From an uncultured Nitrososphaerota archaeon (GTDB lineage: Archaea; Thermoproteota; Nitrososphaeria; Nitrososphaerales; Nitrosopumilaceae), in assembly GCA_963701075.1 (NCBI GenBank), contig OY969559.1:224001-288000 (forward strand): a stretch of DNA of 64,000 bases. The letters are read 5' to 3'. The notes beneath the pieces are model-generated. The model searched no databases and was not told where the DNA came from. It was given only the letters and a program-made list of their open reading frames with translations. Of this stretch, positions 19,279-48,100 are shown one piece after another. The translations under genes and the position numbers were made by a program. The first letter of the stretch is position 1. Each line of letters opens with the position of its first letter.

Positions 19279-19503
19279 TTACAAGAGAGTGATAAATTCC
19301 TCAACTGTCAATTCCGCCTCTTCCAATATAGCCTTCAACGTACCTTTGGCTATCTCTTTATGATTTGGTACTGTCAGTCTTTTATGCGGATGTTCTCTAT
19401 GTCTTAAAATTATATGACTTCCAGTTTGATGATCTGTATCGTACCCAATTTTTGATAATACCTTGATTACTTTTATGGCTGAAACTATTGGAATTTTAGG
19501 CAC
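19279..19503 (-). CDS. hicA: HicA toxin
   Basis: QTGSHIIL...LTVPNHKEIAKGTLKAIL. Confidence 0.93.
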   Translation of the reverse strand: MPKIPIVSAIKVIKVLSKIGYDTDHQTGSHIILRHREHPHKRLTVPNHKEIAKGTLKAILEEAELTVEEFITLL

Positions 19504-19705
19504 TTACTTCAACCAATTCTTCTTCTACATTTGGGAGAGGCTCATTATGTTTTTTTAGGCTTTGCAAGTATCCACGTACTGCATCCTTGATGTTAGTCAA
19601 AGCATCTTCTCGTGTCTTGCCCTGCGAGATACAACCTGGTAAGGATGGACATTTTGCTACAAATATGCCGTCCTCATCTTGCTGTATCAATATTCGATAT
19701 TTCAT
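19496..19705 (-). CDS. hicB: HicB antitoxin
   Basis: DEDGIFVAKCPSLPGCISQGKTREDAL. Confidence 0.93.
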   Translation of the reverse strand: MKYRILIQQDEDGIFVAKCPSLPGCISQGKTREDALTNIKDAVRGYLQSLKKHNEPLPNVEEELVEVSA

Positions 19706-19774
19706 TACTATTGTCCTTTGTGTTTTTTATTTACTTAAACGTTAACTTCTAGTATTTTATTATGTCTTTGACTA

Positions 19775-19782
19775 GTCAAATA
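19775..19782 (+). repeat. 8-bp target-site duplication, left (GTCAAATA)
   Basis: Identical direct repeat at 21059-21066, each directly abutting a TIR. Confidence 0.9.
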
Positions 19783-21058
19783 GGTTCTGTCAACTTGATG
19801 GCTCATCCTACAAGTAAACTCGGCGCAATCTGCTCCACATCTTTGGACTGCTTCATCGCTTCATCTTGCACTGCGTCAGGCTCGAACCGTGCTGGTTCTT
19901 TCTGTTTCAGCATTGCCAAGCCTCTAGCCAGAATGTTTCTGCTGGCGTTTTTGTCCCTGTCTATTATAACACAACAGGTCGGACATCTCATCATTCGATG
20001 CTCTTCGGGTATCATTTTTGACCCACATACCGCACACTTCGATGAAGTCCCATTTGGTTTTACATAAATCACTTCAAGGCCGTTACAATCAACTGACTTG
20101 TATTTGATCATCTTTTGCAACTTGAATCGTGACCACGAGTTTAGTCTGAATCTAAACCTTTTTCCCTGACCGTTTCCTTTTCTGTACAATTTTCTTATTC
20201 CAGTGAGATTCTCCATTATGACCTGCCTGCCCTGTGATACAATCTCACTTGATTTCTGGTGCAGGAATGTATCTTCTCTGTTCTTTTGTTTCTTGCCATA
20301 TTTTTGTTTGAGTCTCTTCTGTATTCTGGCATCGTTTCTTGTAAAGTGCGACAGTACATCTCTGTATTTTGCCTTCATTGATGCAATATCAGACATGTCT
20401 AGTACCATGGTGGTGCTGGTTTCGTCCGTGCCAGTTGCGTTCTCAAGGTTCATGTCAATTCCAATGTATCCAGCCGGTTCCTTTCTTGATATCCCTCTTG
20501 TATAAGATATGGATAATTTTTTACCAGTTAATGTAATCTCTCCTAGTTTCAGACCTGGTTGTAGTAGAACATTATAGACATGGTGATTGAGAGGGATGTA
20601 GACAAACTGTCTTGGTCTAACCGGAAACTTGAGGTGGTTGTGGACTAGCTCGTATCTCTGGTTATCAATTACAAGTATGCGTCTTTTCATGAATGGTATC
20701 TTTACACTTGCATTCTTCTTTTTAGCTCGACGATAGTTTTTGAGCATGGCACAAGCCTTCCAGATTGCAGTGTAGACATATCCAGAATACATCATCTTGT
20801 TGAATTTTGGGTAGACAAGACTACGCAGTTTGAATCGTGAAGTGATACCATGTTTGATACCAAGCCTTATTGCCTCGTTTACAACAGACCTGAAATCCTC
20901 CATCACTGGCACAATCTCAGTACAGCTATGATTCTGTGTTGCACACTTGACTGATAACATTGTAGGCTTTTGATATCTCTGATCTTCTTAAGAAGGAGGT
21001 AATTGTGATATGTCGCAAGTTTACAATGTCTGCCACGAGCCATCAAGTTGGCAGAACC
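19783..21058 (-). mobile_element. Non-autonomous TnpB element with 22-bp IS6-like TIRs (1276 bp)
   Basis: TIRs GGTTCTGTCAACTTGATGGCTC (19783-19804) and GAGCCATCAAGTTGGCAGAACC (21037-21058), 21/22 match; 8-bp TSD; only tnpB inside. Confidence 0.9.
19803..20960 (-). CDS. tnpB: TnpB RNA-guided endonuclease
   Basis: RuvC-I IGIDMN, RuvC-II MENL, Zn finger CAVC..CPTC, RuvC-III DRDKNASRNI; catalytic D-E-D intact. Confidence 0.93.
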   Translation of the reverse strand: MLSVKCATQNHSCTEIVPVMEDFRSVVNEAIRLGIKHGITSRFKLRSLVYPKFNKMMYSGYVYTAIWKACAMLKNYRRAKKKNASVKIPFMKRRILVIDNQRYELVHNHLKFPVRPRQFVYIPLNHHVYNVLLQPGLKLGEITLTGKKLSISYTRGISRKEPAGYIGIDMNLENATGTDETSTTMVLDMSDIASMKAKYRDVLSHFTRNDARIQKRLKQKYGKKQKNREDTFLHQKSSEIVSQGRQVIMENLTGIRKLYRKGNGQGKRFRFRLNSWSRFKLQKMIKYKSVDCNGLEVIYVKPNGTSSKCAVCGSKMIPEEHRMMRCPTCCVIIDRDKNASRNILARGLAMLKQKEPARFEPDAVQDEAMKQSKDVEQIAPSLLVG

Positions 21059-21066
21059 GTCAAATA
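21059..21066 (+). repeat. 8-bp target-site duplication, right (GTCAAATA)
   Basis: Identical to 19775-19782. Confidence 0.9.
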
Positions 21067-21100
21067 ACATTATTAATGGAACTAAATAGAATTCCAACGA

Positions 21101-21173
21101 AGCCCGGTAGTGTAGCGGTCAAGCATAGGGGCCTTTGGAGCCCTTGACCCCAGTTCGAATCTGGGCCGGGCTA
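21101..21173 (+). tRNA. tRNA-Gln(TTG)
   Basis: Acceptor AGCCCGG/CCGGGCT, anticodon loop CT-TTG-GA, T loop TTCGAAT. Confidence 0.95.
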
Positions 21174-21227
21174 CTTTTAAAATCAAATTCCTCAAAATAT
21201 CATCACATGTAGTTCATGTGCGGCACA

Positions 21228-21449
21228 TTAACTGGCGGCATAAGATGCGGCAAGATAGTTATTCCAACCAGAACCGGTACAACAAACAAGAGTACAGGTA
21301 TTGTAGCAAGAAGTATTCCAAGCAAGAGACAGACTTCTGGCCTTTTTTGGATCATCATCACGAATAACAAAATATGCAACTATTCCTCCCAGTACGTTAA
21401 ACACAATAGGCAACAGGAACCATAGACTGCTTCTTCTTCTAATTTGCAC
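21228..21449 (-). CDS. Small membrane protein (probably frameshifted after KKAR)
   Basis: WFLLPIVFNVLGGIVAYFVIRDDDPKKA. Confidence 0.6.
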   Translation of the reverse strand: MQIRRRSSLWFLLPIVFNVLGGIVAYFVIRDDDPKKARSLSLAWNTSCYNTCTLVCCTGSGWNNYLAASYAAS

Positions 21450-46839: not shown

Positions 46840-48100
46840 GGTTCTGTTATGAGTGTTTGTCAAATTTGCAAGACATACCCCCATCACTTGACTGCATCGA
46901 CTCGATAGATTACCGGTTCCTTGCTACCAGGTTCTACCATCACCGCTTCACCTGCAGTCCCGTCTGGCACGACCTGTGTGCCTCGAAGCAAGATGTTGTG
47001 AGCAGCGTTGATATCTCTATCAATACTGCTCTTACAAGTAGGACAGAACATCTTTCGGTGCTCTTCGGGTACTAGTTTTGACCCACATGCCGCACACTTT
47101 GTGCTTGTCCCACCTGCCTTGATATATTCTACCGGCAGACCAAGCCATCTTGCCTTGTACTCGATCTGTCGTTGAAGTTCATAAAATGACCAAGAGTTCA
47201 TCTTTTGTCTGTGCTTTCTTCCTTGACCGTTTCCCTTTCGATACAACTTGCGAATTCCCTTGAGGTTTTCCATTATGATTCCAGAATTTTGAGATACAAT
47301 CTTCTTTGATGTATAGTGCAAGATACCATGTACTCTGTTCTTCTGCAGTTTACCATATTTTTGAAATATCTTTCTTCGTATCCTGGAATCATTGCGTTTG
47401 AATTTACTTTTTACTGTACTGTATGATGCAATGATCTTCTGAGCCTGGAATAGGTCGTGTACAATACAGTTTCCATGTGTATCATATGTTGTTACATTAT
47501 TTAGATTTCTGTCAATTCCAATAAAACTAGATGGTCTTTGTTCTGGAATGTCTTTAGAGTATGAGATTATCAACTTGTCATCTGTGATGGTAACATTTCC
47601 AAGCTTTGTACCCTTAATTTTTTCACAAACATAGCTAGTCAGCCTGATGAGGATATATTTTGTAGATTCTGTAGGAACTCTGATGATATCATATTCAATC
47701 TTATATGACTGATTTTCAATTATCAAGTGATTCCTTGAAATATACGGTTTTTTAGCATTAGGTTTCTTCTTTAGCACCTTTTTATACAGTTTCAATTTAG
47801 AAGCAGCACATTCTAGTGCACCATAGACATATTTGCAATGGAACTGTGAGTCTAGACGTAATTTGTGGTACAATTGGTAATGAATTTTGTACTTTGATGT
47901 GAGGTTCTTCTCTATACCGATCCTGATTGCCTCGTTTGCGCAGTATCTGAAATAATCAAAGACTGGACCAAGCTCGTCTTTTCTGTTATGGTACTGCCAG
48001 ACACACTTTGTTACTTTCATGATGTGTCAAAAACGAACGATTCACCTAAAAGGTATTGGTAATTATCACATATCCATATAATTCAACAACACTAACCTAA
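46840..48100 (-). mobile_element. Second TnpB element; intact GGTTCTG end at 46840, other end uncertain
   Basis: GGTTCTGTTATGAG 44 bp past the tnpB stop; only a degenerate CAACAACACTAACC near 48084-48097; no clear TSD. Confidence 0.6.
46884..48020 (-). CDS. tnpB: TnpB RNA-guided endonuclease
   Basis: IGIDRN, MENL, CAAC..CPTC, DRDINAAHNI; shares LYRKGNGQG...NSWS with copy 1. Confidence 0.93.
   Translation of the reverse strand: MKVTKCVWQYHNRKDELGPVFDYFRYCANEAIRIGIEKNLTSKYKIHYQLYHKLRLDSQFHCKYVYGALECAASKLKLYKKVLKKKPNAKKPYISRNHLIIENQSYKIEYDIIRVPTESTKYILIRLTSYVCEKIKGTKLGNVTITDDKLIISYSKDIPEQRPSSFIGIDRNLNNVTTYDTHGNCIVHDLFQAQKIIASYSTVKSKFKRNDSRIRRKIFQKYGKLQKNRVHGILHYTSKKIVSQNSGIIMENLKGIRKLYRKGNGQGRKHRQKMNSWSFYELQRQIEYKARWLGLPVEYIKAGGTSTKCAACGSKLVPEEHRKMFCPTCKSSIDRDINAAHNILLRGTQVVPDGTAGEAVMVEPGSKEPVIYRVDAVK

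Follow-up and report, generated by a model that had tools for sequence, protein, structure and literature searches.

A tnpB-only element with IS6-type inverted ends in a Nitrosopumilaceae genome, probably mobilized in trans by an IS6-like transposase

We analyzed a 64,000-nucleotide stretch of the genome of an uncultured Nitrososphaerota archaeon of the family Nitrosopumilaceae (contig OY969559.1, positions 224,001 to 288,000; this whole stretch is called the window here). The subject of this analysis is a 1276-bp element at window positions 19783-21058, whose sole gene is tnpB. We consider it likely that this element is a tnpB-only, non-autonomous transposon with a putative omegaRNA scaffold at its 3' end and that an IS6-like PF13610 transposase moved it in trans.

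TnpB, the ancestor of Cas12, is carried by IS200/IS605 and IS607 elements (obligate mobile element-guided activity [OMEGA] systems of the ISDra2 type). These have no inverted ends, rely on a Y1 or serine TnpA, and have a target-adjacent motif (TAM) that abuts the left end; IS605 and IS607 elements excise without scars and make no duplication. To our knowledge, the role of TnpB has been worked out only for IS605/IS607 elements. The element described here resembles them in the RuvC D-E-D motifs and zinc finger of its protein, in a predicted scaffold that overlaps the 3' part of tnpB and would terminate together with the element, and in a guide that would be taken from the flank. In contrast, it has inverted ends and an 8-bp duplication, its genome holds no such transposase, and its candidate TAM lies 8 bp from the end.

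The two arms of the element (19783-19804 and 21037-21058) are 22 nt long, inverted, and 95% complementary (21/22), and the octamer GTCAAATA occurs directly outside each of them (19775-19782 and 21059-21066) as a perfect 8-bp duplication. Both tips begin with GGTTCTGTCAAC..., that is, GG..CTGT with a G at position 7, and the outermost GGTTCTG is inverted at the two tips. Between the arms, the only long open reading frame (ORF) runs from 19803 to 20960 on the minus strand and encodes 385 amino acids; its stop codon extends 2 nt into the left arm. Terminal inverted repeats (TIRs) matching at 21/22 positions, a perfect 8-bp target-site duplication (TSD), tnpB as the only gene with a TIR over its stop, and an intact RuvC D-E-D had all been claimed in the original prediction, and all were found. 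The features are as follows.

19783-19804, no strand assigned: TIR at the tnpB 3' end ("RE"), GGTTCTGTCAACTTGATGGCTC on the plus strand
19803-20960, minus strand: tnpB, 385 amino acids, with RuvC D-E-D motifs and a zinc finger
20961-21036, minus strand: tnpB 5' untranslated leader within the element, assigned by position only
21037-21058, no strand assigned: TIR on the 5' side of tnpB ("LE"), complementary to the RE arm at 21/22 positions
19775-19782: copy of the target-site duplication on the RE side, GTCAAATA on the plus strand
21059-21066, no strand assigned: copy of the target-site duplication on the LE side, GTCAAATA
19783-19922, minus strand: predicted omegaRNA scaffold of about 140 nt, from the covarying structure of alignment A1
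19763-19782, minus strand: predicted guide part of the omegaRNA (the duplication copy, then the hicB-side flank), placed according to TnpB biology
21067-21069, minus strand: TAM-like trinucleotide, TGT when read in the direction of tnpB, immediately preceding the LE-side duplication
19279-19503 and 19496-19705, minus strand: hicA and hicB, a toxin-antitoxin pair; left neighbor, outside the element
21101-21174, plus strand: tRNA-Gln (UUG); right neighbor, outside the element

The end repeat is found in this genome beyond chance, because a 19-mer end motif (≤3 mismatches) had 7 forward and 5 reverse sites in the 1.9 Mb, while the reversed control pattern had none in either direction. The boundary at 19783 was fixed independently by metagenomic contigs. 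We compared three soil runs whose contigs were 90-95% similar to the element and probably derive from DNA; contigs from two of these runs, belonging to two studies, matched inward from exactly 19783, and the sequence outside was unrelated. On one soil contig, a different TIR-type end begins after 19735, and thus the spacer was hit more than once. Part of the leader (20961-21036) is also present in a relative that is 74% identical (L087).

Four full-length copies of the element (A to D) were found at different sites in the same genome, and these are 88-100% identical. The copies have duplications of their own: GTCAAATA (8/8), TTATTGTC (8/8), TAATCTT(A/G) (7/8), and none in the fourth. In the copy that lacks an octamer, copy D, tnpB is frameshifted and one of the arms has lost 1 bp. 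Synonymous divergence (dS) between the copies was 0.24-0.40, so recent movement within the genome is unlikely. It is doubtful that the element is currently mobile in this genome, as the copies look old and the ends of the resident transposase element (see below) have diverged. In copy B (genome G000, positions 170226-171416), the stop codon within the inverted repeat is altered from TGA to CGA, so that the ORF runs 11 codons further, through the end and into the flank.

More distant tnpB paralogs with IS6-type ends were located at G000 66607-70647 (L029), 1208209-1211862 (L033), and 143082-147125 (L031). Paralog F has an 8/8 octamer (TAAAAGAC) that is preceded by TTG, paralog I is frameshifted and has the 8/8 octamer TGCTTTAA, and paralog G has a GGTTCTGTCAAG... 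end and no octamer. The presence of such ends on paralogs F, G, and I indicates that several TnpB lineages in one genome ride this end type. The window itself holds a second tnpB paralog on the minus strand (46840-48011; G000 270840-272011), 45% identical to the first; an end of the form GGTTCTGTTATGAG... adjoins its 3' side at 46840, and a search for a matching 5' end found none. There are also solo 22-nt ends with no element attached, at G000 168583-168604 (22/22) and 1820112-1820133 (20/22). Of these solo ends, one lies at a distance of 1.5 kb from tnpB copy B and the second lies 940 bp away from the resident transposase element.

To place the element in a wider family, metagenome contigs were searched with the clade alignment (A2), and 80 of 255 relatives were kept as loci. 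A GGTTCTG-type end pair (≥14/22) surrounded a tnpB-only element of 1.2-1.3 kb at 30 of these 80 loci, 11 of which had an 8/8 octamer and a further 3 a 7/8 octamer. When left and right flanks of different loci were paired as a control, 8/8 octamers arose in 3 of 870 pairs, all of them duplicate insertions. The comparison of homologous tnpB loci for TIRs and 8-bp TSDs, which the original prediction had proposed, therefore came out in its favor. After removal of near-identical flanks, 31 independent insertions remained (27 from metagenomes and 4 from this genome), with the duplication at 8/8 in 12 and at 7/8 in 4. In the archaeal family genomes, the end 22-mer (≤3 mismatches) occurred in 21 of 151, and further tnpB elements with such ends were found in three (G008:C15, G109:C166, and G112:C13). 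Two metagenome loci, L177 and L180, share the right flank and the octamer and have different left flanks, a pattern as expected from inter-copy recombination or unresolved copy-in events.

The tnpB product matched PF07282 (Cas12f1-like TNB domain) with an E value of 7e-15. The E of VIMENL and the D of DRDKNAS line up with their counterparts in a solved TnpB (9nzp). The first D (IGIDMN) and the CxxC...CxxC zinc finger were identified by inspection of the sequence. D169, E250, D336, and the four Cys are invariant in alignment A2. Among the three intact genome copies, the ratio of nonsynonymous to synonymous divergence (dN/dS) was 0.20-0.27, which points to purifying selection on TnpB. Judged from this ratio and from the catalytic motifs, TnpB is predicted to be functional as a protein.

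The candidate partner is a zinc-finger DDE transposase. PF13610 (DDE_Tnp_IS240) matched exactly one ORF in the genome, of 456 amino acids and with a CxxC-rich, zinc-finger N terminus; the match spans 136 of the 139 profile positions and scores 67 bits against a cut-off of 27 bits. Its matches to rve and IS66 were weaker and fell under their cut-offs. The resident element that carries this transposase is 2278 bp long, holds a 265-amino-acid passenger ORF as well, and has ends of the GGCTCTGT... type (GGCTCTGTAAAG... and GGCTCTGTACAA...) flanked by the octamer TGTTTGAA (8/8). In contrast, neither Y1_Tnp (PF01797) nor Resolvase (PF00239) matched anything in this genome, a single contig with a marker-based completeness of 95%; the control genomes were matched by both profiles.

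Relatives of the transposase were present in 62 of the 151 family genomes. A generic inverted-repeat search at transposase loci returned noise and subterminal repeats, and we used motif-anchored searches instead. Of 26 published transposase loci examined for ends, 11 had an end pair of ≥14/22 together with an 8/8 octamer, and these elements measure 2278-3980 bp. Thus, in related Nitrosopumilaceae the same ends bound PF13610 transposase elements of 2.3-4.0 kb that make 8-bp duplications, and some 22-mer pairs 2.3-2.7 kb apart enclose a homologous transposase and a passenger gene. The ends of three such elements are 19-21/22 identical to those of the tnpB element: G005:C11 (21/22 and 19/22, with octamer ATAAAACA at 8/8), G094:C1 (20/22 each, no octamer), and G090:C18 (octamer ATAATACG at 8/8). 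Because PF13610 elements have the same ends and the genome has no Y1 or serine transposase match, movement in trans by an IS6-like transposase is well supported. This agrees with the earlier claim of a non-autonomous element moved by an IS6-like DDE enzyme, given the shared ends and the 8-bp duplications. The further expectation of an IS6 transposase with the same TIR held in relatives (up to 21/22) but not in the element's own genome, where the resident ends are only 16/22 and 14/22 identical to those of the tnpB element.

We searched for a composite element with both genes and found none among the loci examined. The transposase was absent from all 101 published tnpB loci. In turn, tnpB was absent from the DNA examined at all 27 published transposase loci and from regions L068, L069, and L071-L072, and matched only in L070, a region chosen for its two tnpB elements. 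The 3 + 1 loci from unpublished genomes likewise included none with both genes. The absence of such loci implies that the tnpB elements are non-autonomous riders on an archaeal IS6-like family with varied cargo.

Several arrangements at the transposase elements themselves were also observed. In L097 and L100, subterminal repeats near both ends resemble the inner terminal repeat (TGTCAACCATCGGCTCATTT) and may be extra transposase-binding sites. Three transposase elements, L097 (G005:C11), L099 (G056:C28), and L106 (G054:C1), adjoin the end of another copy in the form ...ACAGAACC, 8 bp, GGTTCTG..., with the same 8 bp at the far side; two of the three have a transposase fragment upstream. This pattern suggests either a preference for insertion flush against a resident end or the formation of tandem dimers.

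Two other identities for the element were weighed. It could be an ordinary IS200/IS605 element of the IS1341 type that depends on a Y1 TnpA, with the repeats being subterminal hairpins and the octamer a coincidence. Elements of this kind that carry only tnpB are common, especially in archaea (PMC10691335), and the end does hold a small palindrome, TCAAnTTGA, such that RNA or DNA of the 3' end can form a hairpin. However, GGTTCTG is inverted at both tips, many independent insertions have perfect 8-bp duplications of variable sequence, the same ends bound elements with a DDE transposase, and Y1_Tnp was missing from a genome searched alongside matching controls. We regard this identity as extremely improbable, and membership in IS200/IS605/IS607 was rejected on the inverted ends, the variable 8-bp duplications, and the lack of a Y1 or serine transposase. 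Slightly less improbable, and still very unlikely, is that the ends belong to another DDE family with 8-bp duplications (IS1595-like or ISH3-like) and that the likeness to IS6 is superficial. According to Harmer and Hall, the archaeal "IS6" elements are distant from bacterial IS6/IS26 and may deserve a family of their own (PMC6807381). Against this, the transposase inside elements with these ends matches PF13610 over nearly the whole profile, with rve and IS66 below cut-off, and the ends follow the IS6 consensus in beginning GG..CTGT with a G at position 7 (PMC6807381).

Some observations weigh against movement in trans by an IS6-like transposase. No duplication is present in copy D or in many of the relatives. 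The ends of the resident transposase element match poorly, as noted above; well-matched partners were found in other genomes, and only solo end remnants (20/22 and 22/22) persist here, so that a well-matched autonomous partner seems to have been lost from this genome. The unoccupied sites are also imperfect. G160:C144 is collinear from hicB to tRNA-Gln and has no element, but it has diverged at the octamer, so a single copy at the empty site is not proven by it. In G155:C240, the closest relative examined, a single GTCAAATA immediately precedes the same tRNA-Gln leader and the element is absent, but the left flank is not homologous. The empty allele with a single octamer that the original prediction looked for was therefore recovered only in part, on the tRNA-Gln side in the closest relative.

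Conservation within the element is highest in the last ~130 nt, with 0.90-0.94 of the columns identical in the four copies compared with 0.66-0.88 upstream in tnpB, and dS in the last 50 tnpB codons is about half that of the rest. We aligned the last 230 nt of 15 elements (alignment A1) and obtained a consensus structure in which 30 pairs form three main helices. Paired cells amounted to 94.6%, compared with 84.6% in shuffled alignments (0 of 500 reached the observed value) and ∼35% with slid partners, and 15 of the 30 pairs had compensatory changes. The predicted scaffold covers the last ~40 tnpB codons and the inverted repeat; in its last predicted helix, the inner half of the inverted repeat pairs with upstream sequence, and ...AGAACC is left before the flank. 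A single-sequence fold of the 3' end was no more stable than shuffles (z = -0.72), so only the alignment-based structure carries weight, and an Rfam search of 19500-21300 returned nothing but tRNA-Gln. The conserved covarying structure fits a putative omegaRNA that would end at the element boundary, with a guide that would start with the duplication; the earlier proposal of a scaffold ending in the TIR is supported to the extent that the predicted structure runs into the repeat.

If the guide consists of the octamer and the adjoining flank, then a TAM must lie at positions -9 to about -12 from the tnpB-upstream end. In the 31 independent insertions, T was found at -11 in 25 (P = 5e-9, background 0.29) and at -10 in 22 (P = 2e-6). 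The dinucleotide TT occurred in 17 of the 31, with 2.7 expected, as TTG (11), TTA (4), or TTT (2), whereas the mirrored AA beyond the other end occurred in 4. Within the clade of this element, all 5 insertions (copies A to D and L141, which is 87% identical) read T-G-Y at -11 to -9, and nothing similar was present on the mirrored side. The 11 transposase-bearing elements have 22 ends, of which 3 carry TT and 4 carry T at -10 (TT versus tnpB elements, Fisher P = 0.004). An asymmetric motif, TT(G) in the metagenome relatives and TGY here, lies 5' of the duplication and is a putative TAM. The original prediction had expected a TAM that was relaxed or decoupled from the transposon end. The candidate motif lies 8 bp away from the end and is short and asymmetric, and a TAM thus does not look to be absent or free.

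A mechanism can be proposed from these pieces. The element, sitting between 22-bp TIRs of an archaeal IS6-like family, would be acted on in trans by the zinc-finger DDE transposase, which would make the 8-bp duplications and leave Y1 or serine TnpA unused. The scaffold would stop at the last base of the element, and the RNA would continue into the flank, so that the guide would be the 8-bp duplication plus the next ~8-12 nt. In an unoccupied allele, the guide-matching sequence would be preceded by the upstream flank, which would put a short TAM immediately before the duplication, at a distance of 8 bp from the tnpB-upstream end. In an occupied allele, ...AGAACC would stand at the place of the TAM, and that allele would be spared from cutting. 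TnpB could then cut empty alleles, and repair from the occupied copy would drive or retain the element, as in IS605 but with the TAM displaced. Trans-mobilization itself, the existence and ends of the RNA, the function of the motif as a TAM, and homing are what we infer from the patterns above. We tentatively advance a reading in which TnpB homing has been re-fitted to a DDE transposon of the copy-in type that makes duplications, with the duplication as the first 8 guide nucleotides and the TAM (TGY in this clade and TTG in a large soil clade) 8 bp outside. As part of it, and just as tentatively, the one-sidedness of the motif may arise because only insertions next to a TAM persist and spread, through cleavage of empty alleles, or because TnpB biases where the borrowed transposase inserts.

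IS6-like movement could hold and the flank motif could still reflect a target preference of the transposase or selection for a promoter element in the flank (an AT-rich stretch, TATA-like or resembling a B-recognition element) that drives tnpB from outside, with TnpB as a passenger that has another role or none in spread. The T at -11 is also frequent in transposase-bearing elements, enriched at both of their ends (14/22), so part of the -11 signal may be target preference. The duplications are AT-rich, and IS6-family ends form hybrid promoters with flanking DNA (PMC7986276). Further, TT was found in 0 of 8 end-paired elements of other subclades, drawn from 25 genome-derived loci (3 of these 8 have a duplication of ≥7/8); because TT was not replicated there, the motif is clade specific at best. 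However, the motif is one-sided with respect to tnpB (TT in 17/31, mirrored AA in 4/31), which is not what a transpososome of two-fold symmetry should produce when the inverted ends are nearly perfect. T at -10 also separates the tnpB elements (22/31) from the transposase-element ends (4/22), T-G-Y (5/5 in this clade) contains G/C and is not TATA-like, and the motif ends exactly where the predicted guide match begins. A promoter explanation fits poorly with a one-sided motif that contains G/C and abuts the guide match, and we consider the passenger explanation as a whole unlikely. One further point counts against re-fitted homing. IS6-type movement is copy-in and involves no excision; in IS605, homing makes sense as a way to restore an excised copy, and this rationale is not directly transferable. 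A search for RNA sequencing runs that contain the stretch found none.

The general phenomenon of TnpB in DDE/TIR transposons, with solo copies moved in trans, is already published for other DDE families. Prokaryotic TnpB in DDE transposons with inverted ends was described in 2023 as branches DDE-1 to DDE-6, and solo tnpB copies with the ends of transposase-bearing elements were read there as moved in trans (PMC10691335). The main text of that paper names IS630 (DDE-6) alone as a DDE family and does not name IS6 as a TnpB partner, while its supplements may name IS6-like partners; a 2026 review lists ISL2, IS630, and IS1031 as DDE partners of TnpB (PMC13565253). Literature naming both TnpB and the IS6 family was unrelated, judged by titles and abstracts, and the available text of two IS6 reviews (PMC7986276 and PMC6807381) has 0 occurrences of tnpB. 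As in the DDE-associated branches, tnpB here lies within inverted ends common to DDE-transposase elements, its 3' end is within 250 bp of the element end, and solo copies occur (PMC10691335). In contrast to those branches, no element with both genes was seen here. The candidate partner is a zinc-finger transposase of an archaeal IS6-like family whose elements usually carry other cargo, and a variable 8-bp duplication stands between the element end and the TAM-like motif. What is added here is a named partner family, a predicted scaffold, and a displaced, clade-specific TAM candidate.

Bao and Jurka are said to have described Fanzor in eukaryotic TIR (DDE) transposons in 2013. Fanzor is similar in being a TnpB-family nuclease in TIR/TSD transposons of unrelated transposase families, with a fixed 5' TSD (such as TA or TTAA) that is itself part of the TAM (PMC13565253). 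Here, unlike in Fanzor, the duplication is variable and is the predicted start of the guide, the motif lies outside it, and the host is an archaeon.

With regard to the IS6 family, 8-bp repeats and miniature inverted-repeat transposable elements (MITEs) are known, and ISDsp3 is given as the single cargo-carrying member (Varani et al. 2021, PMC7986276). The consensus ends begin with GG and have a G at position 7, and archaeal members are ≤25% identical to bacterial ones, and their membership has been questioned (Harmer and Hall 2019, PMC6807381). The elements here share with the family the GG..CTGT ends and the 8-bp duplications, their candidate partner is a PF13610 transposase, and long zinc-finger forms and non-autonomous MITEs are known from the family (PMC7986276 and PMC6807381). 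They differ from classical members, which are ∼800 bp and carry only the transposase, in that the partner elements are 2.3-4.0 kb and hold passenger genes. The relation of archaeal members to IS26 is distant, so a copy-in/cointegrate mechanism is assumed for the elements here; hints of it are the shared right flank of L177 and L180 and the copy without a duplication. From its sequence, the tnpB element resembles a MITE-type derivative of IS6 as ISfinder defines that family, and the transposase would presumably act on its ends.

These observations put TnpB on a different type of transposon across a family found in ammonia-oxidizing archaea and soil metagenomes. The family offers a named trans-mobilization partner, a candidate scaffold of ∼140 nt, and TAM predictions (TGY and TTG) from insertion-site statistics. 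If the TAM reading is true, RNA-guided homing would be transferable between transposition chemistries, and the family would include compact archaeal nucleases (∼385 amino acids) with short TAMs. Re-fitted homing would, if true, be a natural archaeal partnership between a nuclease and a transposase of unrelated families, with clade-specific TAMs that can be read from genomes alone. If the TAM reading fails, the result is a clear but modest addition to the published DDE-linked TnpBs.

Outside the element, the hicA and hicB assignments are backed by profile matches to PF07927 (E value, 8e-18) and PF15919 (E value, 4e-10). In a comparison with G094, G035, G058, and G175, several congeners carry hicAB downstream of tRNA-Gln, while here it is upstream. 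In the closest relative, another small gene cassette occupies the tRNA-Gln site. The tRNA-Gln neighborhood is a hot spot of rearrangement and insertion.

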